A stretch of DNA of 64,000 nucleotides. Origin: Armatimonadota bacterium. Lineage in GTDB: Bacteria > Armatimonadota > HRBIN16. The translations under genes were made by a program, and so were the position numbers. This document shows, in pieces, positions 20,354-52,238 of this stretch; the stretch's first letter is position 1; every line of letters starts with the position of its first letter. Location of the stretch: the NCBI GenBank assembly GCA_963677485.1, contig OY781964.1, forward strand, positions 4,032,001 to 4,096,000, read 5' to 3'. Under the pieces are notes generated by a model, which saw only the letters and a list, made by a program, of their open reading frames with translations, was not told the origin of the DNA and searched no databases.

Positions 20354-20496
20354 CTCACGCGAAGCCGCGAAGGACGCGAAGAGGGAAGCATTGCATGGCG
20401 GTAGCTCCATCGGTCCGATCCGACGGATTGGACGGATTGGACCGATAGGCTGCTTCCTTCTTTCCTCCTCTTCTCCTTCACTCCTCTACTCCCTTA
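20354..20496. repeat. Mosaic of short-period tandem repeats and hairpin
   Basis: CTCA-CGCGAAG x3 (20354-20381); ATCGGTCCGATCCG..CGGATTGGA x2..CCGAT hairpin (20409-20446); CTCCTCTT/CTCCTTCA/CTCCTCTA/CTCCCTTA 8-mers (20465-20496). Confidence 0.85.
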
Positions 20497-20595
20497 CGCT
20501 ACTGTAACCTTTCCAAACACCATATTTCTACCTGTGTCGGTGCTTACGATATAATGCAAACTGTGGGTTCATAACAATTCTCACGGAGGCCTGTA

Positions 20596-21468
20596 ATGGG
20601 TATATCTCGTATAGCCGTCATCGGTGGCGAAGGCATGCTTGGCAAAGATGTCGTCAGCGCATTTCAGCTTCGCGGAATCGAGGCGATTGCCGCTGATAAA
20701 ACAAGCACAGAACACCCGGTAGACATCACCGATATGCACTCAGTTGAGAGCATATTAAGCGGATGTGATGCCGCGGTTTTGACGGCAGCCTATACCGATG
20801 TGGACGGCTGCGAGCGCAACCCGAAGTTGGCCTATCACGTGAACGCATTTGGAGCTGGCGCGGTGGCATCTGTATGTCGCCGCTACTCTATTCCGATGGT
20901 TTATATTAGCACCGACTTCGTGTTTGATGGCTGCACAGAGAGCCCTTACCGTGAACACCAGCCGGCCAACCCGCTTGGCGTGTATGGTGCCAGTAAGTGG
21001 GCAGGTGAGCAATGGGTGCGAGAGGTATGCCCGGAGCACTACATTTGCCGCACGGCCTGGTTATTCGGTGCCAATGGGAAGAGCTTTCCGAAGACCATGC
21101 TGAACGCGCACCGCGCGGGCAGAGAGCTGAGGGTGGTGGCAGACCAGCAGGGTTGCCCAACCTACACCAAGGACCTGGCGGACTGGGTATGCCATCTGCT
21201 GCTGAGTGGCGCGCCATACGGCACATACCACACGGTAAACTCCGGCAGCACGAGCTGGCATGGTCTGGCTGAAGAGGTGTTTCGGATAGCCGGTCTCGAT
21301 GTGACGATCAAGCCGATCGATCATACCGAATTCACGACACCGACGGAACGCCCGCCATATTCAGTTCTCAACACGGAGCGGCTGCAGCAAACGGGAGCAA
21401 CAGAACCGAGGCCATGGCAACTGGCCTTGAAAGATTTTATGAAAGAGATCGGCGAATGCGCCGATTGA
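20596..21468 (+). CDS. rfbD: dTDP-4-dehydrorhamnose reductase
   Basis: GGEGMLG, AAYTDVDGCE, YISTDFVFDG, YGASKWAGE, VVADQQGCPT, RPPYSVL. Confidence 0.95.
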   Translation: MGISRIAVIGGEGMLGKDVVSAFQLRGIEAIAADKTSTEHPVDITDMHSVESILSGCDAAVLTAAYTDVDGCERNPKLAYHVNAFGAGAVASVCRRYSIPMVYISTDFVFDGCTESPYREHQPANPLGVYGASKWAGEQWVREVCPEHYICRTAWLFGANGKSFPKTMLNAHRAGRELRVVADQQGCPTYTKDLADWVCHLLLSGAPYGTYHTVNSGSTSWHGLAEEVFRIAGLDVTIKPIDHTEFTTPTERPPYSVLNTERLQQTGATEPRPWQLALKDFMKEIGECAD

Positions 21469-21488
21469 TATATAGATAGAGGCGACTG

Positions 21489-24233
21489 ATGGATTTCAAT
21501 AAGACACTGAATCTACCCAAGACCGACTTCCCCATGCGGGCAGACCTCGTGAAGAGGGAGCCCGTGTGGCAGCAGTTCTGGGCAGAGCATGATATCACCC
21601 GCAAGGCTGTGGAGCAGAACCGTCCGAACGGCGTATTCGTGCTGCATGACGGCCCGCCATACTCCAACGGCAACATCCACATGGGACATGCGCTGAACAA
21701 GATACTCAAAGACTTCATCGTGAAGTATAAAACCCTCCGCGGATTCAGCGCGCCGTATGTTCCGGGCTGGGACAACCACGGGATGCCGATTGAGAACGAG
21801 GTGACCAAGGAGTTCCGCGCGAAAAAGCAGACTCCAGATAAAGTCACCCTTCGCAAGCGGTGCCGCAGCTACGCCGCGGAATACGTTGAGAAGCAGAAGT
21901 CACAGTTCCTTCGGCTTGGTATCGGCGGCGACTGGGATAACCCTTACCTGACCATGAAACCTCATTTTGAAGCCACCATCGTGCGCGTATTCGGCGAGCT
22001 CGTGGAAAAGGGGTTCGTCTATCGCGGGCTGAAACCTGTTCTGTGGTGCCCTGTCTGCGAGACCGCTCTGGCGGATGCTGAAGTGGAGTATCACGAGCAT
22101 ACCTCACACAGCATCACCGTGAAGTTCCCCCTGCTGGCTGACCCAAAAAAGCTGGCTGACGGGCTAATAGATCCGCATGTGGTGATCTGGACCACCACCC
22201 CCTGGACCATCCCGGCTAACCTGGCCGTCGCGGTGCATCCCGACGAGGAGTATGCCTGGGTTAAGTGCGAGGCCGGCACCCTTCTGATGGCCACCGCACT
22301 GATCGACAGCGTCATAGATGTCTGCGGCTTGGAATGGCATGAAGTGATCCGTACCTGCACCGGCCGCGGTCTTGAGGGATTGGTGTTCAAACACCCTCTG
22401 TATGATCGCGAATCGCCTGTGGTTCTGGCCGACTACGTCACGATGACCGACGGCACCGGTGTGGTTCATACCGCGCCTGGCCACGGTGAGGACGACTTCC
22501 GCACAGGTAAGCGCTACGGGTTGGATGCCTACTGCCCTGTCGATGGCTCCGGCCATTATAACCAGACGGTGGGCGAGCGGCTGGCGGGTCTGCATATCAA
22601 AGAGGCGAACGGAGCTGTCATCGAGTGGCTGAGGGAGAACGGGGTTCTGCTGAACCACACGCCATTTGAGCACCAGTATCCATACTGCTGGCGATGCCGC
22701 AGCTCGCTGATCTTCCGGGCCACCACGCAGTGGTTTATGAACATCGACCACGATGGACACCGCCAGAAGTGCGTGGAGAGCATCAAGCAGACCAAATGGT
22801 ATCCCGCACAGAGCATCAACCGCATCACCAGCATGGTGGAGGGGCGCCCTGACTGGTGCCTCAGCCGTCAGCGAAGCTGGGGTGTGAATATCCCAGCCTT
22901 CCATTGCTCTGACTGTGGCGAAGTGCTGTTGGATTCTCATATCATTGCGAACGTAGCTGATCTGGTGGAACAAAACAACTCCGATATCTGGAGCGAACAG
23001 CCTGCGGAATTCTTCTTGCCCGAGGGGCAGAAGTGTACCAAGTGCGGTGGCAGCACGTTCGAGAAAGAGACCGACACACTGGATGTCTGGTTCGATAGCG
23101 GATCGACCAACCGAGCTGTGCTGGAGAGCCGCCCTGAGCTGCACTGGCCAGCCGACGTCTACCTTGAGGGCTCTGACCAGCACCGTGGTTGGTTCAACTC
23201 CAGTCTGATGGTCGCACAGGCCACCAAAGGCCAAGCACCGTATAAAACTGTCATCACCAACGGCTGGATGCTGGATGCTCAGGGTCACCCGATGCACAAG
23301 TCACTTGGCAATGTGATCTTGCCGTCGGAAGTCATCGCCAAATACGGTGCTGATGTGATGCGGTTATGGGTAGCCAGCGTGAACTACATGGAAGATGTGC
23401 GGCTGAGCTACGACATCTTGGACCGCACCTCGGAGAACTTCCGGCGCATCCGCAACACTGCGCGGTTCATACTTGGCAACATCAGTGACTTCGATGTGGA
23501 GACGCAAGCGGTGCCAGAGGCTGATCTGCTGCCACTCGACCGCTGGGCCTTGGCCCGGCTGCGAGAGGTGATGAACAACTGCCGCGCCTATTTCGATGAG
23601 TTCGAGTTCAACAAGGTATATCAAGAGGTGCATCTCTACTGCGCTCAAGACCTGAGCGGCTTCTATATGGATGTGCTGAAAGACCGGCTGTATGCCTCCA
23701 AGGCGGACAGTCTGGACCGGCGCAGCGCGCAGACGGTTCTGCTGGAAATCTGCAAGAGGCTGGCGCAGGTTTTGGCGCCGATCATGACGCACACCTCTGA
23801 AGAGATATGGCAGGCACTGCCCATCGGCAACAAGCAGGAGAGCGTGCTGCTGAGCGTGCTTGAGTGTCAGGACTTCGGCCCTGAAGACGCCGCTGTGGTG
23901 GCGAAGTGGGCACCTGTGTTAGAGCTGCGTGAAGTGGTCAACAAGGCAATGGAAGAGTTCCGTCAAGGCGGCGAGATCAAGCGTAGTCAAGAAGCGGCTG
24001 TTCTTGTGACGGCATCCGCTGAGATGCTGGCATCTCTGGCAGATTACACCGGCATGATGGCCGATCTGTTCATGGTAGGTGGCGTCGAACTGTCCGAGGG
24101 TGCTGAGCTTCTCGTGACCGTCAGCAAGGCGGTAGGGGAGAAGTGCCCTCGCTGCTGGCTGATCAAAACCGACATCGGGGCCAACTCGGCACAGCCGGAA
24201 GTTTGCGGCCGATGTGCTGAAGCGCTGACTTAA
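21489..24233 (+). CDS. ileS: Isoleucine--tRNA ligase (type 1)
   Basis: TLNLPKTDFPMRA, HDGPPY..HMGH, WTTTPWTIPAN, GTGVVHTAPGHG, LEGSDQHRGWF, PMHKSLGN, C-terminal CPRCW..CGRC. Confidence 0.98.
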   Translation: MDFNKTLNLPKTDFPMRADLVKREPVWQQFWAEHDITRKAVEQNRPNGVFVLHDGPPYSNGNIHMGHALNKILKDFIVKYKTLRGFSAPYVPGWDNHGMPIENEVTKEFRAKKQTPDKVTLRKRCRSYAAEYVEKQKSQFLRLGIGGDWDNPYLTMKPHFEATIVRVFGELVEKGFVYRGLKPVLWCPVCETALADAEVEYHEHTSHSITVKFPLLADPKKLADGLIDPHVVIWTTTPWTIPANLAVAVHPDEEYAWVKCEAGTLLMATALIDSVIDVCGLEWHEVIRTCTGRGLEGLVFKHPLYDRESPVVLADYVTMTDGTGVVHTAPGHGEDDFRTGKRYGLDAYCPVDGSGHYNQTVGERLAGLHIKEANGAVIEWLRENGVLLNHTPFEHQYPYCWRCRSSLIFRATTQWFMNIDHDGHRQKCVESIKQTKWYPAQSINRITSMVEGRPDWCLSRQRSWGVNIPAFHCSDCGEVLLDSHIIANVADLVEQNNSDIWSEQPAEFFLPEGQKCTKCGGSTFEKETDTLDVWFDSGSTNRAVLESRPELHWPADVYLEGSDQHRGWFNSSLMVAQATKGQAPYKTVITNGWMLDAQGHPMHKSLGNVILPSEVIAKYGADVMRLWVASVNYMEDVRLSYDILDRTSENFRRIRNTARFILGNISDFDVETQAVPEADLLPLDRWALARLREVMNNCRAYFDEFEFNKVYQEVHLYCAQDLSGFYMDVLKDRLYASKADSLDRRSAQTVLLEICKRLAQVLAPIMTHTSEEIWQALPIGNKQESVLLSVLECQDFGPEDAAVVAKWAPVLELREVVNKAMEEFRQGGEIKRSQEAAVLVTASAEMLASLADYTGMMADLFMVGGVELSEGAELLVTVSKAVGEKCPRCWLIKTDIGANSAQPEVCGRCAEALT

Positions 24234-24235
24234 CA

Positions 24236-24715
24236 TTGCGGCGATTACACTTCCTATTGGTTGCTGCACTGGTCATGATACTAGACCAGTGCAGCAAACT
24301 CTGGGCCACCAGAGCCTTGATGCCCATACGCGAAATTGATTTGATTGATGGCATTTTTACGCTAACCTATGTGCGTAACCGGGGGGTAGCCTTCGGGCTG
24401 TTGCAGGGTACTGGTATGGCCATTGCCATGATCACCATTATCGTCATTGGCTGGGCGATCTGGTGGGCGTTCCAGCGTCCCCGGCTGGCACGTATCGAGA
24501 TATGGGCTTTGGGGCTCGTCACTGGCGGAAGCCTGGGCAATCTGATCGACCGTATCCGGCTGGGGTATGTGGTCGACTTCTTCGACTTTCAAGTTTGGCC
24601 CGTGTTCAACGTGGCGGATATCTGCATCTGCACCGCCGCGGCGTTGTGGATGTACCAGATATGGCAGCAGGAACGCCAGGCTAGTAAACCCGTGAAGGTC
24701 AAACGCAAACGGTAG
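24236..24715 (+). CDS. lspA: Signal peptidase II
   Basis: LDQCSK, NRGVAFG, GGSLGNLIDR, VVDF, FNVAD; follows ileS. Confidence 0.96.
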   Translation: MRRLHFLLVAALVMILDQCSKLWATRALMPIREIDLIDGIFTLTYVRNRGVAFGLLQGTGMAIAMITIIVIGWAIWWAFQRPRLARIEIWALGLVTGGSLGNLIDRIRLGYVVDFFDFQVWPVFNVADICICTAAALWMYQIWQQERQASKPVKVKRKR

Positions 24716-24741
24716 GTTTGGGTTCTGCATGCCGGAGATCC

Positions 24742-25376
24742 TCTGAACCACGGATGACGCGGATTGCACGAATGGGGTGTTGGTGACTGGTTTCACCAAC
24801 ACCCCATTTTGAATTGACCCGCATCGGGGGTAGGGTTTCCGGCGGTTCCTACCACGGGTTGCGCTGGCGCTTGCAAGTAACTGGTCGTTATTAAGGTTAT
24901 GCCGCCAAACTTCGACGGATTCCATCAGCCCGCTAAAGCAGGCCTCGTCACCCGTCGCTTATCATCTAGCTGTCCGCTGAAGCGGACGCGGGGATACGCC
25001 CTGCGCCGGCCGGAGCGAAGCGACGCCGGCCGCTAATGATCAGCCACGCGGTGAGGAAACCCCGTAGGGACGCCAGTCCCGTGGGGTGACTGAACCCGTG
25101 GCCATATGCCGACATCATCCGTTACACCATGGGCTGCCGTACCTTCACGGGCGAGTGCTTGTTGAGCAGTAGCCGAGACATTGATGTCGCGGTGGGAAGA
25201 CCGATGGTGTAGGCTCTCCGCCAGACCTGCCCGGTTAGGCAAAACCGCCCAAGAAATCGGTATTTAAGACAGCTGTGGCGGGCAAAAACCGCACCGGTCG
25301 ATGCCTCATCTGTGTCATCTGTGTAATCCGTGGATGTGTTCTTCCCATTCGCGTCTATTCGTGTCCATTCGTGGTT
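24742..25376. repeat. Composite palindromic repeat mosaic, locus 1 (module order A-B-C)
   Basis: Module A 24742-24872 resembles 27105-27226; module B 24999-25102 resembles 27372-27501; module C 25212-25250 resembles 27298-27338; closes with 9- and 10-mer tandem arms at 25307-25376. Confidence 0.9.
24771..24810 (+). terminator. Perfect 16-bp hairpin ending in TTTT; likely terminates rfbD-ileS-lspA
   Basis: AATGGGGTGTTGGTGA-ctggtt-TCACCAACACCCCATT followed by TT; part of repeat module A. Confidence 0.55.
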
Positions 25377-25648
25377 CTATAACAGATCGCGATTGACCCA
25401 GTGTCTTGCGACGATGCAAAGGTGGTTTGCAACGGCCCTGCTCGATACGGTTCTGTAACACCCCCATAGCAAGCCGTCGACAGAAAACACACGCATTCCT
25501 CCGTCCTCGATATGGGTTGGTAATGCCAAGACAAAAAAGGATAATATATACCGATGTCATTCGACACGGATGAAAGAACCTAAAGCTCGGATTGGTTAAT
25601 CGAGCATCTGTGTGCAATAAAACTAGTTGGTAAAGATGGGTCGGCAAT

Positions 25649-27085
25649 ATGAATATCAGAATCGTAAAAACTACCCTGCAGTTTGTTCTCCTGGCCGCAA
25701 TATGCCTGGCGGTAACGATGGCCTCAGGCTGTGCGAAATCCACACAAGCCCCGAAAGCGATTGCTATGATTGATGCCCTGGCGAAGGGCGACTACGCCAC
25801 CGCAACCGTCGATGTGAACGCGGATATGAAGAACACGCTTTCGGCGGAAGTCCTAAAATCATTATGGACAAAGTTGACAGCCAAATCGGGAGCATATGTA
25901 TCCCACAACGGCTACCGCCAGATCAGTAGGGGTGAATATAAAGCGGTCACTATCCCGTGCAAGTTCGAAAAAGCGGTTTGGGACCTGGAAGTCACTTTTA
26001 ACCGAAATGATCAGGTCGTGGGGATACGCTACAGCCTGCCCGAACAGCAATCCGTCGGGCTAGAAAAAACACCTGCGTATGTTCATAAGGACCGCTTCGA
26101 TGAGCGCAGTGTCAGCTTTAAAAGTGGCGAGGGTAAAGGATCGGATTTAATATTAGCGGTGGAAAAAACCAACACGACTAGTCGTGGTTTCAGCAACACG
26201 ACTAGTCGTGTTTCCATCAAGAATGGTGTCAAGAAGGTTACGGCTACCCTTTCTGTGCCCTATGGAGTGGGCCCGTTTCCCGTCGTCATCCTGGTTCCCG
26301 ACACATCAGTAGAAGGTGCTCAGGGATCAGGGCCTGCGGAACCGCTGCAGGATATCGCCTGGGGCCTGGCATCTCAGGGGATCGCCGCATTGCGGTATGA
26401 TAATACGCTGAGTAACCGGCAACACACGAAAACCTGGACGGTGAACGAAGAGGTTATTGACGATGTGGCGGCGGCGATGAAGTCAATCGAGAACGAAAAG
26501 ATGATCGACCAGCATCGGATTTTCGTGCTTGGGCATGGACTGGCAGGCTATCTGGCTCCACGGATGGGCAGGGATCATCAGCAAATCGCCGGTCTGATTG
26601 TGATGGCTGGAATGGCCCGCCCTCTGGAGGATGTGATTTCGGGTTCAGAGAAATATAAAGCGTTGGCTTTAGAGCCTACAGTGAGTGATTATACGAAAAA
26701 GTCACTGTTGCAGCTAAGTCAGGACGTCTCCAGAGTTAAGATAATCGATCCGTCTGAAAAGGAAACGACGACTGTCCTTGGTCAGCCCATATCCTACTGG
26801 CGCGACCTCTATGGGTATTCCCCGGTGTCTGTGGCCAAGGGGCTCAAGCAACCAATGTTGATCATGCTTGGGGGTCGTGATTATACAGCGACAAATGCCG
26901 ATCTGAAGCTGTGGAAGCAGTTATCCGCTTCACGGGCGAATGTGGCGGTGAAGCTCTATCCCGACTTGAATCAACTGTTCATCTCTGGCAAAGGGATGGC
27001 GACGCCCATCGAGTATGGCATCTACGGCAACGTCCCGCAGCAGGTGGTGAGTGACATCTGTGGCTGGGTACGCGGGCAGAAATAG
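25649..27085 (+). CDS. DUF3887 + alpha/beta-hydrolase-fold lipoprotein with degenerate catalytic motifs
   Basis: Lipobox-like MASGC; DUF3887-type N-domain; DIAWGLASQGIAALRYD, TVNEEVIDD, FVLGHGLAG, GGRDY, YPDLNQLF. Confidence 0.8.
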   Translation: MNIRIVKTTLQFVLLAAICLAVTMASGCAKSTQAPKAIAMIDALAKGDYATATVDVNADMKNTLSAEVLKSLWTKLTAKSGAYVSHNGYRQISRGEYKAVTIPCKFEKAVWDLEVTFNRNDQVVGIRYSLPEQQSVGLEKTPAYVHKDRFDERSVSFKSGEGKGSDLILAVEKTNTTSRGFSNTTSRVSIKNGVKKVTATLSVPYGVGPFPVVILVPDTSVEGAQGSGPAEPLQDIAWGLASQGIAALRYDNTLSNRQHTKTWTVNEEVIDDVAAAMKSIENEKMIDQHRIFVLGHGLAGYLAPRMGRDHQQIAGLIVMAGMARPLEDVISGSEKYKALALEPTVSDYTKKSLLQLSQDVSRVKIIDPSEKETTTVLGQPISYWRDLYGYSPVSVAKGLKQPMLIMLGGRDYTATNADLKLWKQLSASRANVAVKLYPDLNQLFISGKGMATPIEYGIYGNVPQQVVSDICGWVRGQK

Positions 27086-27104
27086 AGGGTATCTGCGGGG
27101 TTAT

Positions 27105-27772
27105 TGTCTGAAACACGGATTGCGCTAATGGGGTTTAAGTGCCGTTTGTCACCAACACCCCATTATGAATCGACCCACTTCGGGGTAGGCTTTCGGCGGT
27201 TCCTTCCAGGGGTTGCGCTGCGCTTACCCCTGGCTATAAGAATCTTACCCACTCCGTGGGTGTCCGGAGGCTGCGACCTTCTAGCATGGTGGTTACAGGC
27301 TAACCGCCAGACCGGCGCGGTTAGGGGAAAACCGCCCCGGACATAGGCAATTGGGCTACAACGGGTTTCCCCCCTGCGCCGGTCGGAGCGAAGCGACACC
27401 GGCCGATAATGATAAGCCGTGCGGTGAGGGAACCCGCACCAACGCAGCTCCTGGAGCGTCAGCTCCCGGATCGGAGTGGTGTGGGTGACTAAACCCGCGG
27501 CAGGGTGGCTGTACCACGGATTTCACGGATGGGGAGGCGACCCCGTCAACCCTTTGCGTCCTTGCACCTTGGCGTCTTTGCGTTGATCTGCTCCACCTTT
27601 TCGCGTCTTCGCGTCTTCGCGTGTCCACATTCCGTATTCGTGTCTACCTGTGTTCATTCGTGGTGAACAAGAAGACCTGTAGGATGAGTACGACGAGTAG
27701 GACGGGGGCTTGCCTTTTCGCGTCTTCGCGTCTTCGCGTGAGCCTTTTTCCATTTGTGTTCATTCGTGGTTA
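27105..27772. repeat. Composite palindromic repeat mosaic, locus 2 (module order A-C-B plus tandem-repeat train)
   Basis: Modules homologous to 24742-25250 and 8360-8440; then CACGGATTT 9-mers (27513-27530), CTTTGCGT-type 8-mers x4 (27552-27583), TTCGCGT(C) x3 twice (27599-27623, 27716-27742), ATTCGTG(T/G)T 10-mers, GTAGGATGA-type 9-mers (27679-27704). Confidence 0.9.
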
Positions 27773-27895
27773 AAATACGGCCGGCGTCATCTGTGGAACA
27801 AAACACTATCTTCCGCCCTTGCAATTATCACCTTTCACCGGCACAATATACCAAAGTGGGCTGCTTTTCGTCGTCCACCAGGAGTTTATTCATCG

Positions 27896-30652
27896 ATGCA
27901 TCACAAGTCTTACAATCGCCAACTAGCAGGAATTCTGGCTGCGCTTATAACTGTCTGTGTGGCGTCTTCACCACAAGCCAAAGCCGGTGTTCCAGCTCAA
28001 AAGAATAGGGATAAAGAGATGTCTGCCATTACAAAAATGCACATCACGGGTCCGTTGGGCCAGCGTATCGAAGCGAATCTGAACCAGTGGCTGTTGCCCG
28101 CTCCAGATGCTAACCCGTCTATGGTGGAGATGTTCAACGTCCGGGACCGGTCGCAGCCGTATCCCAACCCACTGGCCTGGTCGGGTGAGTTTTTCGGGAA
28201 ATACTTGATCTCCGCCGTTCAGGCACTTCGCATGACCGAAAGCAAGCAGCTTAAACAAAACATCGAGCAGATGGTCGCGCGTTTTATCAGCCTGCAAAGC
28301 GAAGAGGGCTACATGGGCCCGTTCCCGAAGGCTCAGCGGCTGCGCACCGGCTGGGATGTGTGGGGACATTATCACTGTATGCTGGGGCTCTACCAGTGGT
28401 ACCGTTACTCGGGTGACAAAACCGCGCTGACCTCGGCCATCAAGGCTGCAGACTATATCTGCGACACCTTCTTGAATGGGGATCTTCGCATCTACGATAC
28501 GGGCAGCCTGGAAATGAATATGGGTGTAGTGCATATCATGGGCATTCTGCACCGCGAGACCGGCAACCCTCGCTACCTGCAGCTTATGCGGCAGATTGAA
28601 GAGGATTGGCGCAAGCCAGAGGCGGGAGACTACCTGGAGCAGGCTTTGGCAGGTAAGGACTTCTATAACACACCCAAACCGCGATGGGAGAGCCTGCCCA
28701 TTCTGCAAGGCATCGGCGAGTTCTACCGCATCACGGGCGATGAGAAGTATCGGACCGCGTTGCTGCATGACTGGTACAGCATCCACATGACCGATGTACA
28801 CAACAGCGGCTCCTTCAGCGCAGGTGAGCAGGCGGTCGGCAACCCGTATGTGCCGATGGCTATCGAAACATGCTGCACTGTGGCCTGGATGGCGCTAAGC
28901 ATCGACGCGCTCAAGTTCAGCTCAGACAGCCGCATCGCAGATGCGTTGGAGAACGCCACCTACAACGCCATGCTGGGCGCGCAAAGCCCGACCGGCCGAT
29001 GGTGGACCTACGACACTCCCATGAACGGCCGGCGCGAGGCCGCTACGACGAACATCTACTGGCAATCCCGCCCGGGCAGCCCTGAGTTCAACTGCTGTTC
29101 GGCGAATGGACCTCGCAGCCTGGGTATGCTCAGCGAATGGTCGGTGATGGCGAATGAGCAGGGACTGGCGATCAACAGCTATGCTCCTGGTCAGATCAAC
29201 GCCAAAGATGCACAGGGTCACAAGTGGAAAATCGAGCTCAAGGGCGAGTACCCCGTGGAGCTGGCCACCGAGATCACACTCAAACCAGAGTCGAGTGTCG
29301 AGGCTTGCGTGCGGTTCCGCATCCCTGGCTGGTCGACAAAAACTCAGGTTAAGCTGAACGGAAAGTCACTGGCTATCCCAGAGGCTGGTGAATATCTGGC
29401 TATCACCAGAAAGTGGAAGTCCGGCGATAGAGTTTCCATCCAGTTTGATGAAACGCTGCGTGTGCTCCGCGCCGATCAGCGTCAGCAAAACAACGGCTGC
29501 ATCTACAGAGGGCCTCTGCTGCTGGCGATAGATCAGCACGACAACCCGTATGATCCCGACCAGATGAAGGCGCTGGACGCGGAGAAGCTGGAGTATAAGC
29601 TGCTTAAGCCGCAGGCTCCTCTGGCTCCTATGTGTTCCTTGCAGTTCAAGGACGTAGAGGGTCAGAATGTGGTGCTGCGTGACTTCGCGTCGGCAGGCAA
29701 CCTGGGCACGACCTACCGAAGCTGGATGCCGATGGTCAACACTGCTCCGGCGGCATTCCTGCTGGAATTCCCGGCATATGGTGCGGTGGTGGCTCCAGGG
29801 CGTCTGTCGTTCCGTTGGGGCGATGCCGGTGATGAGTGCAGTTACAAGTTCGAACTGGCTGATAATTCGCAAATGAAGGATCCGCTGGTAGTAAAAGATG
29901 GCCTGACCACATTCTCCGTGGCGTGCGATGATGTGCAGTCCGAGAGGCCGCTTTACTGGCAGGTTACGGCAGTGAACAGCAAGGGCAAGCAGCTCTGTAT
30001 CAACGGTCCTTGGAAGCTGTCCCTCGATGCCAGTATGAAGCCGGACGAAGAGGGTGCTGTGGCACGGGCTGCTATGCATGGCGACGCGAAAGTGGAACTC
30101 GGTGCACTGGTGCAGGCTGTGGCTATCGCGCCAACTTCCAACCACGATGGCGTTGAGAATACCGCGAGCGGCTTCAATGGCGGGTCGAGTAAGATTCAGA
30201 TCAAACCGACCGTGATGCCGTTGCGCGACTACACCGCCAGCTTGTGGGTCAAACCGCTGTATGCTGATCCCAAGAATACTGACAACCGAATGATCATCAG
30301 CGCCTGGCGACTGCCGATGGATGATCCCATGCGCCTGGTGATGATCGGCAACCAGATCATGGGTGCCATTGAGAACGGCGCGAACTACATGACGCCTGGC
30401 ATCCCTGTGGTTCACGGCAAGTGGATACACATCACTATGGTGAAGAAGGGTACCGAACTGGCCGTGTATGTGGATGGCAAGAAGAAGCAAAAGGTGGCTT
30501 GTCCCGAGGAGTTGATCAGTTACGCGGATGATCTGGCCATAGGGGCCAATCCACACTTCGCGATAGGACAGAACTCCTGGTGCGAAGTGTCGGACTTCGT
30601 GCTTTACGCTCGGGCGTTGTCTGATGATGAGATCAAACAGCTTGTGAAGTAG
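27896..30652 (+). CDS. GH127/GH146 beta-L-arabinofuranosidase-like hydrolase with C-terminal LamG domain
   Basis: WSGEFFGKY, ETCCTVAW, FNCCSANGPR Cys motifs, FRIPGWS, YRGPLLLA; C-terminal WIHITMV..VYVDG..YARALSDDEI; signal peptide; AGGAG RBS. Confidence 0.88.
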   Translation: MHHKSYNRQLAGILAALITVCVASSPQAKAGVPAQKNRDKEMSAITKMHITGPLGQRIEANLNQWLLPAPDANPSMVEMFNVRDRSQPYPNPLAWSGEFFGKYLISAVQALRMTESKQLKQNIEQMVARFISLQSEEGYMGPFPKAQRLRTGWDVWGHYHCMLGLYQWYRYSGDKTALTSAIKAADYICDTFLNGDLRIYDTGSLEMNMGVVHIMGILHRETGNPRYLQLMRQIEEDWRKPEAGDYLEQALAGKDFYNTPKPRWESLPILQGIGEFYRITGDEKYRTALLHDWYSIHMTDVHNSGSFSAGEQAVGNPYVPMAIETCCTVAWMALSIDALKFSSDSRIADALENATYNAMLGAQSPTGRWWTYDTPMNGRREAATTNIYWQSRPGSPEFNCCSANGPRSLGMLSEWSVMANEQGLAINSYAPGQINAKDAQGHKWKIELKGEYPVELATEITLKPESSVEACVRFRIPGWSTKTQVKLNGKSLAIPEAGEYLAITRKWKSGDRVSIQFDETLRVLRADQRQQNNGCIYRGPLLLAIDQHDNPYDPDQMKALDAEKLEYKLLKPQAPLAPMCSLQFKDVEGQNVVLRDFASAGNLGTTYRSWMPMVNTAPAAFLLEFPAYGAVVAPGRLSFRWGDAGDECSYKFELADNSQMKDPLVVKDGLTTFSVACDDVQSERPLYWQVTAVNSKGKQLCINGPWKLSLDASMKPDEEGAVARAAMHGDAKVELGALVQAVAIAPTSNHDGVENTASGFNGGSSKIQIKPTVMPLRDYTASLWVKPLYADPKNTDNRMIISAWRLPMDDPMRLVMIGNQIMGAIENGANYMTPGIPVVHGKWIHITMVKKGTELAVYVDGKKKQKVACPEELISYADDLAIGANPHFAIGQNSWCEVSDFVLYARALSDDEIKQLVK

Positions 30653-30688
30653 GCGCACGATAAAACTGGTTGAGTGCTCAACCATAGG

Positions 30689-41883: not shown

Positions 41884-41913
41884 CATTACCTATACCTAAC
41901 GACAATCCCCAAG

Positions 41914-43950: not shown

Positions 43951-44108
43951 GGAGGATCACCAACCGGCATCACCAACCTACCAATTACGCAGGCAGGCGT
44001 ATACACTAATCATAGGTATCCACAAGCTGCGAGCTACTTGTCACCACGTGATGGTAGTGGTTGCGTGGCATATACCTAATATTGCTATACATTCATGGAG
44101 CGACATAC

Positions 44109-45134: not shown

Positions 45135-45333
45135 CCGAATATGGGACACGCCTTCTTCGTGAGTGCTCGAAGAGGTAATATCATAGATTAGGTATCTTTG
45201 GATGCTAAGTTGTCGATATGAGCCCATGCAGTGACTCACTGGCGTGTTTAGTCATCTATGTCGCGCGATCGAACAAAGCGCCCACTCGATGGTGTGGGTC
45301 ACGGCTTCCATATATTCAGGGAGATATCGGCAG

Positions 45334-48300: not shown

Positions 48301-49095
48301 GTCCTGGCGGAAGGTCCGGTGAGGTCGATCAAGCGGGTCACCCTTAAGCAAGACAAGACCGAGTATGTTCAGGACATCGTGCAGTATGCATCCCTGCCAC
48401 GGCTGGACATCCGCTACAAGGTTCGCTGGCAAGACCGCAAAACCATGTTGAAAGCCGATTTTCCGTTCGAGATCAAGGGCGCCACCGCCAGGTTTGAGAT
48501 ACCATTTGGAAGCATCGTGCGGGCCGCAGACGGCAATGAGGTGGTGACGCAGAAGTGGGTCGACCTGTCGAACAAGCAACATGGCGTGGCACTGCTGAAC
48601 GACAGCAAATACGGTGTCAGCGTGAGTGGGAGCACCATCCACATGACACTGCTGCGCCAGCCCATCTCTCCTGACCCTAACGGCGATGTGGGTGACCACG
48701 AGTTCGCGCTGTCGCTATATCCGCATGATGGTGACTGGGCAAAAGTCGATGTGGTGCGCAAAGGCTACGAATTCAACAACCCGCTGATCGCAGTGCGCAC
48801 GGCTGCCCATACGGGATCACTGCCGGAAGCGCATTCTTATCTGGAGGGCTCCGCCAATGTGGTGGTGACCGCCATGAAAAAGGCGGAAGACTCCAACGAT
48901 CTGGTGGTGAGGTTCTACGAACATGCTGGCGAGGCCTCAGAGGCCGTCATCACCCTTGACAGGCCGGTGGCCTCCGCGGTCGAGATGGACAACATGGAGT
49001 GGAAGACGCTGGGCAAACTGACGGTCAAGGGCAACCAGATCATCGCACCCATGAAGCCATGGGAGTATAAGACCGTGCGGATACGGTTGCGGTAG
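45334..49095 (+). CDS. GH38 alpha-mannosidase with N-terminal accessory beta domains
   Basis: GHGHIDLAWLW, GEALVRQ, WAPDTFGH, YGVGDHGGGPT, GCYTSQ, NQFHDIL, NDSKYG; signal peptide. Confidence 0.94.
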   Translation: MNRSKWVLVLYVMALCIFHVTPLRADDEGYIHDWLACGAFRGDDIHSSLDPLFATDTFPSSGGYSAGKSWQPIRADAMPVDFAKAQLNWDANEHCTAYTSVYVYSPDKLSTTLSVGCDDKYAAWLNGVEVGRSDAWQSYGVNWYKQNVTLRAGWNLLLMRVTNGTSFWQFSARFLDTNGQPITNLKYQTDNPDPNGLFQRRTRLSSELKIISASMDGNGRIDGQKLLVNVRLSVANIGATASAAYRVQAKDAGQSVLGDVELPALNACRAETVVLGIPYENLVRASLLSRQDITVECGQSRMTVPVAQTEIMAMLFRPLRYEWTATLNDGQILAANTLSQAQLKQVKSYHIREMLPEFVRKYQLSAGIDIGWECVGRMLVNGKEVKDHFSGDSGDIALPMTHAADNRIDLFVPVNAGGAPRYDNGWLRVRIPAVENYLKSYQFAQILLKKTSGSSTPELKGILSAILTGDPAKIEAAVKTASLPIDKLAPSAKSYTAHMLGHGHIDLAWLWQTSEMIQVTKDTFKSALSMMDKYPEFKYSQSSAATYWWMEQYAPDTLAQIKQRVTQGRWDPVGGMWSECDSNMPSGEALVRQFLYGQRYMKQQLGKSATAGWAPDTFGHAWSLPQILRKSGLESYTFMRCRPSDEPFWWVGLDGSRIFCSPTENYNSSVGDWIGERLVKNETTTKGGKDIAVVYGVGDHGGGPTMRDIEAAIELDKTKVFPNVKFDTVYQANKALRAQKAEYKSVNSELNFIFQGCYTSQADVKKANRLLENLLPQSEAFSVVAQRYGGSYPSKDIFTAWRHTLFNQFHDILDGSGIHPIYDDGAKEYQQAIKLGQSALSLSLDTITRNIKVSGDSVVVYNPMAWSRTDVVELPNPGNADISVGDPGDCQKEDGKLVFIARDVPAMGYKLFPIRQTAPASAAPVKSSVSATLDPKTGCMSSVKDAAGRELLISGKMANDLWLHRETGDGWNIYPTGVIDKITANADINVLAEGPVRSIKRVTLKQDKTEYVQDIVQYASLPRLDIRYKVRWQDRKTMLKADFPFEIKGATARFEIPFGSIVRAADGNEVVTQKWVDLSNKQHGVALLNDSKYGVSVSGSTIHMTLLRQPISPDPNGDVGDHEFALSLYPHDGDWAKVDVVRKGYEFNNPLIAVRTAAHTGSLPEAHSYLEGSANVVVTAMKKAEDSNDLVVRFYEHAGEASEAVITLDRPVASAVEMDNMEWKTLGKLTVKGNQIIAPMKPWEYKTVRIRLR

Positions 49096-49099
49096 GGTT

Positions 49100-49180
49100 G
49101 GAGAGGAGCCAAGGAGTAAGGAGAAGAGAAGAAAAGAAACTGCTCCTGTTCTCCTTTTCTCCTCTGCTCCTGCCTCCTCC
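49100..49180. repeat. Inverted GGAG/CTCC 8-mer tandem arms between convergent genes
   Basis: GGAG units at 49100-49123 facing CTCCTGTT/CTCCTTTT/CTCCTCTG/CTCCTGC (49143-49173); same 8-mer family as 20465-20496. Confidence 0.7.
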
Positions 49181-49216
49181 GAGCCCCATGTGGCTGCCCT
49201 GCACCCACGGCCAGCT

Positions 49217-51985
49217 TCACCGCTCCGTCCAGATGGGTCTGCCCTGGCTGATCACGGTGACGTTTGCTCGGGTGCTCAAACCACCGTCGGCATCGGCCTT
49301 GAAACTCAGCCTGTTCACACCTGCCTTGAGGGAGGGGATATCTCCGACCGGCGTAATGTCGCGAATAAACTGACCGTCAGGGCCGTAGAGTTTACACTCC
49401 ATGGCGGATATCAGCTCAAGGTAGCTGCCGCTGGGCAGTTCCACCGGAAAAGTGATGCTCTGTCCGCCAAGGGTGACCCTCGGATTTATGATCCTGGCTG
49501 CCAGCAACGGCAACGCCTTCACCGCGCTGATGTGGCACGAGACGCCTCCGTTCGCGGGCAGGTTGTTGACCCAGATACGCAGGTTTTGGATACCGGCGAA
49601 GTCCACGGATTCGCGGAATGTCGGATAGGGCCCTCCATATGGCCACTGGTAATCCAACCAGCGGTCACCCTCCGTCTCGATCAGCTCCACATATCTCCAA
49701 CCAGTGAAGTCGACGGTCAAATAGTGCTCGCTGAAAGCCGCACTGATGTGCTCCGGTGACTTCAACTGGAAGTTGAGCAGTTCGCCCTTGCCGTCGCCAT
49801 GCACCCAGATACCCAGTGCCCTCTTGGCTGAGATATCACGCCATGGTGTGAATGCACTGCCAACATACGCCCATGAGCCTTCTCGCTTTGGGTTGGCATT
49901 GACGGCGGACAACTCCACAGCCTTCAGGCCAGCCGTTGGGTGGAGGTTGGAATCCGCGAGGCTGACAGACACGCCAGCGGCCGCAGCCTTGTCTGGGCAG
50001 GAGGCTGATAGCGAGGGATCGAGCAGCACCACACTTTCTGGCGAATCATAAGCCGCTGCGGACATCAAGGCCTCGATTCGTAGCTTGAGCGGCTGCGGCT
50101 CGTGGCCGTTGGTGACCGACCACTCTGCGCTTCCATCGCGGCTGCCCGTGACTTTGTGTTTTGAGTAATTCACCGGCGACAGGCTGCGCTTGCCATGGCG
50201 ATCGGTGCTGAGTGTGTGCTCAGCTCCTGGCACGGCGAGTTTGGCCAGCACGGCCGCAGGAAGCTTGTGGGCATGGCGCAACTGCTCGTAGCTCTTGAAG
50301 ATACCGGCGAGTCGGGCGATTCCGGGTTTGGCTTTATAGGTCTCCGGGTCGATGCCCATCAGGGCCAGTCCTGTGTCTGTGGCAAGTGCCTTGCCGGCGA
50401 GATACTCGATGTCATCGGGGAATGTCGGCTCGGTGTCGGGGCTGGTCCAACCTTTTGCTGCCCACCAGCCCAACTGAGCGGGCATGAACATTTTGGTGTA
50501 AGCCTCGTTATCCTTGCAGTGCATGTCGATGAACCGCTTGTGGCTGCGGTTGGGATGGTCCCAGGCCCCCAGCCGGCTGCGCAGATACCACAGGTGGTGG
50601 TGGAAGGTGCTCATCTCCATCAAAGCCGGTTTCTTGAGGCGCTTAGCGATTTCAAATACAAACTTCGAGCCGTAGTGCCAGCCATTCTCTGACCCAGCCA
50701 GGATGTCTTCACCATCGAGCGCGTCCAGGTAGATCATGTCAAAACCGCACGCATTATAGACCTCGGCGGTTTTCGCGGCCGCCTCTGTATAGAGCGTGGA
50801 ATCGCCATCGGGCACAAACAGACCAAAACACTCCTTCAGGTGATACAGCTTCGCTCCCGCAGGATGGGCCGCTGCTTTGGTGCCCAGTGCTCCGCGAGTG
50901 CAGCCGGTAAATCCCCAGGGCGCCGTTTTCGATGAGGCCGTGTAGGTGATCAGTTCGTTCTCGATGCGTAGGGTCACGCTGTTTCGGGTTTGGAAGCCCG
51001 TGATGTCCAGCATGGCGGCGGTCGATTCGTCTGTTGTGAGGCTGGTCGTATCCTGTGAAATTGGATTTGATAGGGTGAGGATGGCATCACTGGCCAGCCG
51101 TTTGTCGGGCACCGGCGTGACCCAAGGGCACTTCTTGTCGATGAAGAAAGCGTATGTGTGCAGCCCCGCTTTGATGCCCGCGCGGTGCAGCCGGTCGATG
51201 ACCGCCTTGAGGCTGGCGTAGCCGTTGGGATACATGTCCATATTGGGTTCGCAGTCGCCGAACCGGAAGGATGTGCCGCCATGAAAATCGAGCTGGTTGA
51301 AGCCGAGCGCTTTGATGACGGTGACCCACTCTACCACGCTCTTCTCGGTGACGTTGCCGAAGTTGAAGAGGTATGAGCCGCGGCTGTCCGGACTCTCCAT
51401 TGCCCAGGGACCGCCAAGCCGCGAGTGGGGGAGTTCCGGCGCAGATTCCACCGCCAGCTTCATCACCTCGCGCAGCTTTGGTGCGGGGCATCCGATGATC
51501 GCCACGCTCGCTCCCGCCAGACCAAACCGCGGGACGCATCCCGCCCAGAGGTGGCTGCTGGGCTGCGGCAGCTCCAGCACGTTGGTCTGCAGGTTGCGGG
51601 CCAGCGCGCAGGCCACGAAGGGCTCATCGGCTGTGGCCTTCATCTTCAACGGCAGGTCGATCAGCGTGAGCTCTTCGATTTGCTGGTCAGAAATGGAAAG
51701 CAGCTCCAGCACGAAGTGGCGTTTTAGTGCCTTCAAGGAGAACTCTGCCGTAATCCCCGAGCTGCCGAACAGCACCTTCAGCCGGTGGGCGGGACCGGAT
51801 ACCTGGGTGGCTGGGATGTCCACACCGTTCTTCCGCAGCCGTGCGAAGGGCGTTGGGTTCGCGGTGTCGCAGTAGTTGGTGCGGCTGCGTTTGTCGAGGA
51901 ACTCCACACTGCGTGCCTGCTGGTCCAGGGTGTAGCGGCAGTATTCGTTCTCGATGCTCAGTGTGTTGGCGGTTTGCTGGTTCAT
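49217..51985 (-). CDS. Large hypothetical protein, probable TIM-barrel glycoside hydrolase (GH36/clan D-like)
   Basis: 922 aa from MNQQ (GGAGG RBS); YPNGYASLKAVIDRLHRAGIKAGLHT and GFDMIYLDALD; C-terminal jelly-roll (GIWVHGDG..VDFTGWRY); no signal peptide. Confidence 0.6.
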   Translation of the reverse strand: MNQQTANTLSIENEYCRYTLDQQARSVEFLDKRSRTNYCDTANPTPFARLRKNGVDIPATQVSGPAHRLKVLFGSSGITAEFSLKALKRHFVLELLSISDQQIEELTLIDLPLKMKATADEPFVACALARNLQTNVLELPQPSSHLWAGCVPRFGLAGASVAIIGCPAPKLREVMKLAVESAPELPHSRLGGPWAMESPDSRGSYLFNFGNVTEKSVVEWVTVIKALGFNQLDFHGGTSFRFGDCEPNMDMYPNGYASLKAVIDRLHRAGIKAGLHTYAFFIDKKCPWVTPVPDKRLASDAILTLSNPISQDTTSLTTDESTAAMLDITGFQTRNSVTLRIENELITYTASSKTAPWGFTGCTRGALGTKAAAHPAGAKLYHLKECFGLFVPDGDSTLYTEAAAKTAEVYNACGFDMIYLDALDGEDILAGSENGWHYGSKFVFEIAKRLKKPALMEMSTFHHHLWYLRSRLGAWDHPNRSHKRFIDMHCKDNEAYTKMFMPAQLGWWAAKGWTSPDTEPTFPDDIEYLAGKALATDTGLALMGIDPETYKAKPGIARLAGIFKSYEQLRHAHKLPAAVLAKLAVPGAEHTLSTDRHGKRSLSPVNYSKHKVTGSRDGSAEWSVTNGHEPQPLKLRIEALMSAAAYDSPESVVLLDPSLSASCPDKAAAAGVSVSLADSNLHPTAGLKAVELSAVNANPKREGSWAYVGSAFTPWRDISAKRALGIWVHGDGKGELLNFQLKSPEHISAAFSEHYLTVDFTGWRYVELIETEGDRWLDYQWPYGGPYPTFRESVDFAGIQNLRIWVNNLPANGGVSCHISAVKALPLLAARIINPRVTLGGQSITFPVELPSGSYLELISAMECKLYGPDGQFIRDITPVGDIPSLKAGVNRLSFKADADGGLSTRANVTVISQGRPIWTER

Positions 51986-52073
51986 GGCGGCCTCCGAGGG
52001 CGTGGGCTGTGCTGATGTGTTCAGTTTACCTGATAGCGGTGAGGATGGTTTAACCACAGATGGCAGGGGGGAA

Positions 52074-52238
52074 TGTCTGAACCACGGATTACGCGGATTT
52101 ATAGGATTACACGGATGGAGAGCAAGGGAACGGGATTGTGCGCCTCTCCTCTCCATCCGAACCCATCCGTGTCATCCGTGTAATCCGTGGTTCAGACAAC
52201 CCTCTCCACCCTCCGCGACCTCCGCGTCTCAGCGTGAG
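52074..52238. repeat. 125-bp inverted-repeat element built of 9-mer tandem units, plus adjacent 8/9-mer arm
   Basis: Perfect 19-bp TGTCTGAACCACGGATTAC (52074-52092) / GTAATCCGTGGTTCAGACA (52180-52198); inner CGGATGGAGAG / CTCTCCATCCG; then CTCCGCGAC-CTCCGCGT-CTCAGCGTGAG (52211-52238). Confidence 0.9.

Follow-up and report, generated by a model that had tools for sequence, protein, structure and literature searches.

Dispersed, gene-less copies of the inverted tandem-repeat arms of GxxExxY and four-helix-bundle cassettes in an Armatimonadota genome

Repetitive extragenic palindromes (REPs), with their REPIN and BIME arrangements, are short extragenic sequences present in tens to hundreds of copies, which occur singly, as inverted pairs and in mosaics. 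A small gene, which encodes a REP-associated tyrosine transposase (RAYT) and is present once or a few times, is itself bracketed by the repeats, and the repeats are largely confined to genomes that bear the gene. Here, we describe a repeat family with these same properties from a bacterium of the phylum Armatimonadota. The window analysed is a stretch of 64,000 nucleotides (4032001-4096000); the genome, a single contig, measures 5.22 Mb and has a G+C content of 54.4%. Five intergenic loci in the window, A to E, contain short tandem-repeat "arms". Two differences separate these arms from REPs. An arm is a strand-asymmetric run of direct repeats, whereas a REP is a palindrome with a GTAG or CGTC tag. 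Furthermore, the gene associated with the arms encodes a protein with a PD-(D/E)XK fold (GxxExxY, PF13366) or a four-helix bundle (PF05635), not an HUH Y1 transposase. To our knowledge, no activity has been assigned to either protein family. The arms are the same structures as the inverted ends of GxxExxY and four-helix-bundle cassettes in many bacteria, and the window loci are gene-less copies of them. Sequence comparison suggests, with a probability that we put at about one half, that the arms are non-autonomous and rely for their spread on the GxxExxY nuclease, provided in trans.

A second related system is the intervening sequence (IVS) of 23S rRNA genes with an S23p open reading frame (ORF), found in Coxiella and Leptospira. 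Here too, a small four-helix-bundle ORF lies between inverted arms. In the account of the Coxiella IVS that we draw on, a 28-bp stem, built of terminal inverted repeats, encloses the S23p ORF, RNase III cuts this stem, and two to three tandem GACAGAT heptamers, varying in number among strains, precede the ORF (PMC4990558). The same account regards ORF-bearing IVSs as selfish, with mobility unknown, and dates the question of their origin and mobility to about 1990 (PMC4990558). The PF05635 gene of our genome shows this layout, as do 25-26 of 30 other genomes. However, whereas IVSs occupy helix 25 or 45 of 23S rRNA, the arms described here are found between protein-coding genes. Each of the three 23S genes has a length of 2937 nt, for a model length of 2925 positions, and hence contains no insert. 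In addition, most arm copies in this genome have no ORF and most facing arms are unpaired. A third comparison is provided by the survey of REPtron and TIRtron systems by Di Nocera et al. 2013, which describes RAYT-like genes with long terminal inverted repeats (TIRs) that also form moderately abundant dispersed repeat families (PMC3733652). The likeness extends to one Y1 gene of our genome, at 4121913, which is enclosed by arms. The difference is that the TIRtron gene is a Y1 transposase, and the part of the survey used here does not describe its repeats as tandem-unit arms (PMC3733652).

Arms are about 30-50 bp long. Read on the purine-rich strand, each consists of a head, two to four units of one period (8, 9 or 10 nt) and a G-rich tail, such as GGGAAGGGAGG. 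Heads take the forms GTCTGAAC, ttGTCTGAAC, GTCTCA, tTTTAAC, cATC or GTTAAG, and correspond to the related end signatures that an earlier, sequence-only reading of the window had picked out. The unit families CACGGAT, CGCGGAT, CACGAAT, CACAGAT, CGCGAAG, CGCGGAG and CGCAAAG follow the plan C-R-C-R-R-A-K; the GTAGGACGA and GGAG families stand beside them. Seven arm types have the common plan of head, units and G-rich tail. Units are conserved, inter-unit spacers are variable and the number of units differs between arms. CACGGAT is the commonest type in the genome, with 197 arms.

We counted these features in the whole genome and in an order-3 Markov copy of it, which served as the control. Trains of at least three C-R-C-R-R-A-K units, at 8-10-nt spacing, numbered 432 in the genome and 0 in the control; for at least two units, the figures were 741 and 35. 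The sequence TCTGAACCACGGAT was present in 142 copies (78 on the plus and 64 on the minus strand), compared with an expectation of about 0.02, while CTTCGCGTCTTCGCGT and CTCACGCGAAG had 135 and 104 copies. In the output of Tandem Repeats Finder (TRF), arrays numbered 392 at period 8, 626 at period 9 and 316 at period 10, compared with 83 at period 6 and 155 at period 12, an excess judged against these two periods of the same genome and not against shuffled DNA. These counts bear out the view, taken from the window alone, that the loci belong to one dispersed family present in both orientations. They also address local replication slippage, by which low-complexity intergenic DNA would generate such runs with no common descent. 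The variable copy number of units would fit slippage, as would the greater likeness of units within one arm (6.23 of 7 positions) than between different cassettes (5.69 of 7). Against this, identical heads of 14-19 nt are shared by 142 copies, which already contradicts slippage, the common head, units and tail recur in distant phyla, and the Markov control had no trains of three or more units. We consider slippage extremely improbable.

The arms are placed with respect to genes in a consistent manner. Thus, 296 of the 432 three-unit trains fell outside rough ORFs, which cover 89% of the genome. Where an arm was located within 120 nt downstream of a stop codon (ORFs of at least 150 aa), it was co-oriented with the gene, with its head adjoining the gene, in 221 of 264 cases. 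Near gene 5' ends, 119 of 175 arms pointed away from the gene. Hence, heads face genes on both sides. Arms are also chained head-to-tail, with a gap of 12-17 nt at the lower quartile, and form mosaics both with each other and with REP-like modules of Y1 transposases. Neighbouring pairs within 2 kb were arranged ++ (165), -- (160), +- with heads out (96) and -+ with heads in (33); the median inner gap of head-out pairs was 78 nt. For facing arms separated by no more than 250 nt, 15 of 83 pairs were of the same unit type, compared with 19 +/- 3.5 for shuffled partners. Hence, simple closed elements whose ends match do not account for most local copies. As a source of the chains, nested insertion of matched pairs was considered and rejected, since the innermost facing arms match at chance level. 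On the chromosomal scale, arms are concentrated at 1.0-3.0 Mb, in the origin-proximal half, and are rare near the terminus; GC skew has its minimum near 2.1 Mb, the inferred origin, and its maximum near 4.7 Mb.

The gene set of the genome includes two GxxExxY genes (PF13366/TIGR04256), at genome positions 554463-554813 and 4809842-4810192, and one four-helix-bundle gene (PF05635/TIGR02436). Each of these genes has inverted arms, composed of tandem 7-9-mers, on its two sides. For the PF05635 gene (124 bits), at genome position 2741117, the arms are of GGAG type and CTCCTGA type. Arm tails (GGAGG, GAAGGG) directly precede the start codons of the cargo genes. Because there are roughly 740 arms and only three such genes, nearly all arms, including every arm in the window, are gene-less. 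Indeed, as had been noted from the window itself, no GxxExxY or four-helix-bundle gene lies there; the PF13366, PF05635 and PF01797 (Y1) genes of the genome are all outside it. Across the three aligned proteins, the GxxExxY motif and the predicted catalytic D...(E/D)xK positions are conserved. A search by sequence found no solved structure for the GxxExxY profile, while the four-helix-bundle protein matches XCC0516, structure entry 2gsc.

To place the cassettes in a wider context, we used metagenome loci encoding GxxExxY proteins. The 80 loci were the most similar to the three-protein alignment among 574 confirmed relatives and are therefore not an unbiased sample. Per locus, the 100 nt before the gene contained 0.66 arrays of period 7-11 and the 100 nt after it 0.67, compared with 0.02-0.18 per 100 nt at distances beyond 400 nt. 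Both flanks were present for 67 of the 80 loci. When these were aligned in inverted orientation, the median score was 41 for true partners and 21 for cross-locus pairs; in direct orientation it was 18. Scores of at least 40 were reached by 37 of the 67 loci but by 20 of 396 cross-locus pairs. In 30 of the 67, the gene had on both sides a strict arm composed of three 8-nt units. In these 30 cassettes the arm consensus is tTCTCA-CGCRRAG-n-CGCRRAG-n-CGCRRAG-g, and the arms on either side point at the gene, with about 28 nt between their ends and the Pfam match. Over 13 variable positions, the agreement between partner arms was 0.69; for shuffled partners it was 0.45 +/- 0.027, and the highest value among 1000 shuffles was 0.546. 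The window arms at 20352-20389, 27596-27624, 27713-27744 and 52200-52239 fit this consensus. Arms of the CACGGAT type fit only the wider C-R-C-R-R-A-K plan, not the strict cassette consensus.

Four-helix-bundle genes gave a similar picture. Our sample comprised 30 loci from 30 genomes of the phylum. Arrays were found within 100 nt upstream in 25 and within 100 nt downstream in 26, compared with 0-11 of 30 in background bins. The two arms of a cassette match each other, and the units differ widely among cassettes; they include AGTCGGT, GGGTGAT, AGAAAAC, AGTCGAA, GGGGAGT, ACGACAGGTATA and others. Enrichment of arrays within 100 nt of the gene exceeded 5-fold for both the 80 metagenome GxxExxY loci and the 30 phylum genomes. 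The sequence-only reading had tied the window repeats to these two gene families, and had suggested looking for enrichment within 100 bp of both. The link holds for all three genes here, for the metagenome loci and for the 30 genomes. It had also mentioned low-complexity tails on the proteins; these arise because ORF calls run into the arms. Separately, open frames around PF13366 matches often extend far beyond the 117-position domain, reaching 575 aa. Such long frames fit the reading-through of stop-free arms, and so family proteins in databases may carry spurious tails.

The matching arms of cassettes could point to a role at the RNA level. Transcribed along with neighbouring genes, the two arms would pair as a long duplex, which would be cut by RNase III or would hide a ribosome-binding site in the G-rich tail. 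Such a role would make intergenic insertion harmless and leave spread as a separate matter; it is compatible with spread through the nuclease. The Coxiella IVS, with its RNase III cut in the stem, sets a precedent (PMC4990558). In the present data, the partner arms of gene-bearing cassettes co-vary, GGAGG or GAAGGG tails stand directly before cargo start codons, and locus E of the window is predicted to fold strongly (-74.6 kcal/mol, z -11.5). Moreover, neither arm can fold on itself, given the purine-rich composition of the 5' arm and the pyrimidine-rich composition of the 3' arm. Other observations count against an RNA-level role. Facing arms in this genome are unmatched (the 15 of 83 pairs above), locus A pairs only in its centre, and the three 23S genes are without an insert. 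Partner mismatches, read as sense RNA, also show no G.U bias, with 29 compatible and 40 incompatible transitions. We regard this explanation as unlikely.

To assess the link between arms and genes at the level of genomes, we surveyed 151 genomes of the phylum, scoring strict arms of three units. At least one strict arm was present in 38 genomes and at least five in 25. With the reversed pattern as control, matches per strand numbered 0-2 in most genomes, while two genomes had up to 10. PF13366 genes occurred in 57 of the 151 genomes and four-helix-bundle genes in 75. A PF13366 gene was found in 24 of the 25 arm-rich genomes but in 33 of the other 126 (Fisher p 3e-11). For genomes of at least 4.5 Mb, the corresponding fractions were 20 of 21 and 17 of 32 (p 0.0016). 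Related genomes are not independent and so both p-values overstate the case. Arms exceed PF13366 genes 10- to 100-fold; single genomes had 167 strict arms and 2 genes, 134 and 9, 125 and 1, or 91 and 1. Within the genus, this genome has 2 genes and 77 strict arms and the congener G001 has 1 and 51, while in the congener G002 no gene was found and there were 0 strict arms. In several genomes of the phylum, close inverted pairs have identical arm variants.

Arms are not confined to one phylum. One genome per species was scanned for two CACGGAT units plus GGTT, and 156 matches were listed, in at least 118 loci. We calculate that chance would yield about 140 matches in 596 Gb; hence, the match count alone proves nothing. 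Among the matches listed, 92 of 156 had a third CRCGGAT unit, which the pattern did not demand, and the commonest three nucleotides before AACC were TTT (31 of 156). Again among those listed, 25 loci held at least two matches, and the inverted form followed within 250 nt after 47 matches. Record titles of the loci listed were of Verrucomicrobiota type in at least 62 cases, Planctomycetota in at least 19, Acidobacteriota in at least 9, Bacteroidota and Proteobacteria in at least 5 each and Chloroflexota in at least 4, with about a dozen others. In one locus (L031), two CACGGAT-type arms bracket a GxxExxY gene; most other arms in these loci adjoin ordinary genes. Two further loci, on a Verrucomicrobiota contig (L045) and an Isosphaeraceae contig (L080), contain closed CACGGAT elements repeated in tandem, 3-5 times within 1-2 kb.

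Next, consider turnover between close relatives. Between the two congeners compared, arms turn over fast. The exact head GTCTGAACCACGGAT occurred in 2 of 31 relatives searched, namely this genome (129 copies) and G001 (188 copies); it was not found in a second congener of 3.8 Mb. For a finer comparison, a 400-kb stretch of G001 (1000001-1400000) was set against this genome. Among 61 collinear gaps, arms were present only in G001 in 6, only here in 5 and in both genomes in 7. Arms at collinear gaps had a like partner in 4 of 18 and 3 of 22 cases. Only 10 of 67 arms fell inside aligned blocks, though 68% of the G001 stretch aligns. Single arms had been gained or lost directly beside the head of another arm. 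At the locus E orthologue, the closed element is replaced in G001 by an unrelated one with CGGATTGGA-type units, and the flanks and the adjoining CGCGGAG arm are conserved. Similarly, both arms of locus A are replaced by other types, with flanks and palindromic centre conserved. Presence/absence polymorphism among relatives, as expected of mobile DNA by the sequence-only reading, was therefore seen as gain, loss and replacement. None of the 61 orthologous gaps gave a clean filled-versus-empty pair for an arm element, and no target duplication was seen at six TCTGAAC-type closed pairs read by eye. Contigs from four short-read runs break at the repeats and revealed no strain differences at arms. 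As a separate matter, synteny with G001 is broken into blocks of 1-17 kb that have about 73-98% identity and are dispersed along the chromosome. One such break is at locus B, where the gene downstream of lspA differs in G001.

These comparisons bear on whether the arms could be host chromosomal sites kept by selection, either as protein-binding arrays at gene ends or as 3'-end stabilisers like the REPs of Escherichia coli. The strict adjoining of heads to gene ends (11-27 nt past stop codons at loci A, B and C), the conservation of units but not spacers, and a period of 8-10 nt, near one helical turn, would all suit a host site. However, most relatives have no arms, the exact head being restricted to 2 of 31 and strict arms to 38 of 151 genomes, and arms are not conserved at orthologous sites. 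Furthermore, many unit families coexist and four-helix-bundle cassettes have unrelated units, which argues against a single host protein as the reader. A host-site role is thus improbable in our estimation.

The sequence-only reading took the loci for empty derivatives mobilised in trans, as REPs are by RAYT, but possibly by a different protein. The first part stands, in that the arms are gene-less copies of cassette ends; the second, mobilisation in trans, we infer. The different protein is most plausibly the GxxExxY nuclease itself. In this model, the nuclease (PD-(D/E)XK fold, PF13366) would act in trans on arms. Copying or repair between arm-bearing sites, started by the nuclease, would then spread or exchange arms in a manner resembling homing-like gene conversion. 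We favour break-and-copy over cut-and-paste because arms are swapped in place with flanks untouched, no target duplication is visible and facing arms are unmatched. In intact cassettes the two arms would be kept alike and would pair in the transcript, as in 23S rRNA IVSs; such pairing may be a second function. By analogy, the system would be a counterpart of REP/RAYT in which a PD-(D/E)XK nuclease replaces the HUH Y1 transposase.

Several points weigh against dependence on the nuclease. No enzyme activity, binding or transposition event has been observed, and the role of the nuclease is one that we infer. Arms that arrived with a cassette, and then spread by host recombination, would give the same genome-level link. 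Related genomes do not count as independent cases, and large genomes are richer in both arms and PF13366 genes. PF13366 gave no match in one arm-rich genome (G022), which has 63 strict arms and is 95% complete, and 23 of the 57 PF13366-positive genomes have no strict arm. Four-helix-bundle cassettes are armed too, with very different units and a protein that is not a nuclease. Facing arms are of the same type no more often than by chance. In this genome, the 197 CACGGAT-type arms surround no GxxExxY gene, and the sole gene enclosed by two of them encodes a Y1 transposase. Finally, the 80 metagenome loci, as the most similar of 574, are a biased sample. A bolder version can be put forward only tentatively. 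Here, GxxExxY would be the working enzyme of pan-bacterial foldback elements, the nuclease would recognise C-R-C-R-R-A-K units, spread would be by break-and-copy, and IVSs and four-helix-bundle cassettes would belong to the same class.

The genome contains three Y1 (PF01797) genes. HUH Y1 transposases of IS200/RAYT/TIRYT-like type might mobilise the arms, which would then be an unusual REP or the TIR of a REPtron or TIRtron. In support of this, gene 4121913 is enclosed by TCTGAAC-CACGGAT arms at 4121679 (plus strand) and 4122589 (minus strand). Type-1 arms were considered as the ends of an autonomous element and set aside: of 13 head-out pairs with a separation of 250-2000 nt, a recognisable mobility gene was identified in the 4121913 pair, the only one checked against Pfam. 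The cores of loci B and C hold copies of REP-A and REP-B, two families that flank Y1 genes, and RAYT-like genes with long TIRs that form repeat families have been described (PMC3733652). The purine strand of the arms also tends to the leading strand (46 plus and 15 minus at 3.0-4.5 Mb; 28 plus and 70 minus at 0-1.25 Mb), a bias that co-orientation with genes can explain. Yet gene 4121913 has REP-A modules as its immediate flanks, with the arms farther out. For the other two Y1 genes here, and for two in G001, the surrounding 520-600 nt contain no arms. Arms are therefore near one of three Y1 genes in this genome, and outside its REP-A flanks, unlike the flanking repeats of a REPtron. A single arm is not self-complementary and has no hairpin of its own; a hairpin needs two facing arms, as at loci D and E. 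Y1 enzymes (IS200/IS605, RAYT) need a hairpin. With one Y1 gene enclosed by arms and four others without them, mobilisation by Y1 enzymes is alive as an explanation but weak, and we think it improbable.

The Y1-associated modules are best treated as repeat systems of their own. About 400 nt, in permuted order, are common to the interiors of loci B and C, which are assembled from modules that each recur 30-100 times. We considered these interiors, of about 500 nt, as cargo of the arms and rejected this, since they are copies of the families that flank Y1 (IS200/RAYT-like) genes. REP-A is a module of about 100 nt, comprising a CCACGGGT...ACCCGTGG hairpin plus GGCTATAAGAATCTTACCCACTTCGTGGGTG, with 71-91 BLAST matches per query in the genome. 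It forms inverted pairs around two similar Y1 genes, 376078-376404 and 4121913-4122239. The same arrangement is present in G001. With the protein of the REP-A-bracketed Y1 gene as query, no Y1 gene was found in G002 or in two more relatives (G004 and G005). REP-B consists of GCCGAGACATTTATGTCGCGG plus a CTGCTTCAGCAG hairpin and has about 135 BLAST matches in the genome; the third Y1 gene (YYHIVWSTKNRE type), 2992049-2992381, has two copies as flanks on both sides. A further module of 135 nt (…GCGGTGAGGGAACCC…GGGTGACTAAACCCGCGGC) has dozens of copies in each of G001 and G002, at 82-96% identity. Compared with shuffled sequences, its fold gave z -3.4 on the plus strand and z -1.1 on the minus strand. 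A further Y1 gene, in G001, is surrounded by copies that have a single orientation. For REP-A, a clean insertion was found: at G001 1217645, a 365-nt doublet with GTAACTACT-type inverted ends is inserted relative to this genome, with a CCCTTCGGG direct repeat. A second doublet insertion, of 384 nt, was noted at G001 1261665. The REP-A, REP-B and 135-nt modules are REPtron or TIRtron systems, distinct from the arms. Two 12-mers outnumber all others in the genome, namely GACCGGCGCGGT (398 copies) and GTCCGGGGCGGT (377 copies). They are the two sides of yet another hairpin module, CCAGACCGGCGCGGT..ACCGCCCCGGACATAGGC, whose mismatch is constant and which is present in the window at 27304-27350 and 25220-25252. 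This is the most abundant repeat family of the genome, and we found no gene tied to it.

We now describe the five loci themselves. Direct reading of the sequence located the trains at each of the positions given for them by the sequence-only reading. Arms occupy intergenic gaps of the window, among ordinary genes: a short-chain dehydrogenase, rmlD, ileS, lspA, a hydrolase, GH127 and GH38 enzymes, a URO-D-like gene and ffh. Our arm detector (at least two units) found 11 arms, all within loci A, B, C and E. The units of locus D are of the GGAG/CTCC kind and escape the C-R-C-R-R-A-K detector; this locus was detected by TRF. A tRNA scan found none in the window, and no Rfam 15 family matched at gathering score anywhere in it. 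For 24600-27900, Rfam returned only two chance-level miRNA matches, with E up to 5. Inside the hydrolase gene, at 26157-26292, a direct repeat of ACACGACTAGTCGTG around TGGTTTCAGCA forms a hairpin, which is the source of chance-level miRNA matches (E 0.2 and 1.9).

At locus A, the left arm (20352-20389, plus strand) starts 11 nt past the stop codon of the short-chain dehydrogenase gene (19490-20341). It has the head GTCTCA, three CGCGAAG units of 8-9 nt and the tail AGGGAAGC. The palindromic centre (20409-20446), to which predicted pairing is confined, contains CGGATTGGA units. The right arm (20452-20499, minus strand) is made of CTCCTNNN 8-mers, GGAG-type when read on the minus strand, and is not complementary to the left arm. 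Locus B begins 27 nt past the lspA stop codon with a left arm at 24742-24777 (plus strand; TCTGAAC-CACGGAT-ga-CGCGGAT-tg-CACGAAT-GGGG). A copy of the REP-B module, GCCGAGACAT..ATGTCGCGG, is present at 25157-25192. Two minus-strand arms lie on the right, an inner one at 25304-25336 (CATC-CACGGAT-ta-CACAGAT-ga-CACAGAT-GAGG) and an outer one of 10-nt period at 25341-25379 (TAGAAC-CACGAAT-gga-CACGAAT-aga-CGCGAAT-GGGAAG).

Locus C is a mosaic. Its degenerate left arm (27107-27133, plus strand; TCTGAAACACGGAT) has a single intact unit and starts 22 nt past the stop codon of the hydrolase gene. A REP-A module copy follows at 27168-27274, as a hairpin plus GGCTATAAGAATCTTACCCACT..GTGGGTG, and then a copy of the 135-nt module at 27372-27511 (plus strand). 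Seven arms are packed within 27514-27775. Those on the plus strand are at 27514-27537 (CCACGGAT-tt-CACGGAT-GGGGAGG) and 27677-27708 (GTAGGACGA-type 9-mers). The remainder are on the minus strand. The arm at 27550-27586 has CTTTGCGT-type 8-mers and the minus-strand head TCAACGC, while that at 27596-27624 has CTTCGCGT 8-mers, equivalent to CGCGAAG x3 on the minus strand. At 27630-27668 there is a degenerate arm of 10-nt period, with ATTCGTGTNN units and the minus-strand head GTTCAC. The arm at 27713-27744 reads GGCTCA-CGCGAAG x3 on the minus strand, which is the consensus arm of GxxExxY cassettes. It is followed by an arm of 10-nt period at 27745-27775 (minus strand TTTTAAC-CACGAAT-gaa-CACAAAT-GG).

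Loci D and E are closed elements. Locus D (49096-49181) sits between two convergent genes. In it, a purine-rich GGAG-type arm faces a CTCCTNNN arm, as GGAG/CTCC. Its predicted fold (-40 kcal/mol, z -3.5) is a weaker hairpin than that of locus E. Locus E (52074-52198) consists of two TCTGAAC-CACGGAT arms. The perfect 19-bp terminal inverted repeat reported for it was confirmed by direct reading and is supported by the strong predicted hairpin. Likewise, we confirmed that TCTGAA(C/A)CACGGAT starts elements at 24742, 27107 and 52076. An arm adjoins locus E at 52200-52239 (minus strand CCTCACGCTGAGA-CGCGGAG-gt-CGCGGAG-GGTGGAGAGGG).

Other known repeat classes resemble the arms in part. Like MITEs (miniature transposable elements with inverted repeats), arm elements are small and non-coding, with inverted ends and many copies, and their presence differs between relatives. 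They differ in that the ends are internally repetitive, and single arms occur alone and are exchanged singly. At the six pairs inspected by eye, no target-site duplication is visible. Matching terminal inverted repeats occur at locus E and in many pairs of other genomes, but only 15 of 83 pairs here are of the same type. No parent insertion sequence with arm ends was found. Foldback (FB) transposons of Drosophila have long inverted ends composed of short tandem repeats, and most copies have no coding region. They are eukaryotic, far larger and unrelated in sequence, so that the likeness is architectural only. Short tandemly repeated repetitive (STRR) sequences of cyanobacteria are short tandem heptamers dispersed in intergenic DNA, of unknown function. 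We know of no description of STRR sequences as inverted arms around genes. Since four-helix-bundle cassettes carry heptamer arms, STRR sequences and arms may be the same phenomenon.

Two further candidates were set aside. The heads TTTAAC/GTTAAA resemble the integron core sites RYYYAAC/GTTRRRY. Integron attC sites have R''/L'' and L'/R' boxes and follow single cassettes, in one orientation within an array that has an integrase nearby; the dispersed distribution of arms in two orientations argues against them. A CRISPR array was rejected, because units are of 8-10 nt, head-to-tail and in 2-4 copies, compared with repeats of at least 25 nt separated by unique spacers. One account places 23S_rRNA_IVP genes wedged between cas genes (PMC3936711), a position that fits insertion between genes.

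Our literature searches, whose coverage was incomplete so that an earlier description is possible, found no published account of inverted tandem-repeat arms framing GxxExxY or four-helix-bundle genes. Nor was a description of gene-less multiplication of arms found in the literature searched, and searches with 15-16-nt trains gave no match. The GxxExxY (PDDEXK_3) proteins and the four-helix-bundle 23S-IVS proteins are among the commonest small "hypothetical" families of bacteria. The cassettes that encode them share an unusual architecture. Arms of the nuclease cassettes reach tens or hundreds of copies without a gene, and do so almost exclusively in genomes bearing the nuclease gene; within one genus, the arms turn over. 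In practical terms, arms break short-read assemblies, cause gene callers to add low-complexity tails to predicted proteins and mark variable, rearranged parts of the chromosome. With the arms as defined DNA substrates, open questions of role and origin become bench experiments. If the bolder version holds, with IVSs and four-helix-bundle cassettes in one class with the GxxExxY elements, these would represent a second, mechanistically different counterpart of REP/RAYT. This would give the origin of IVSs a testable form, and two very common "hypothetical" families a function.

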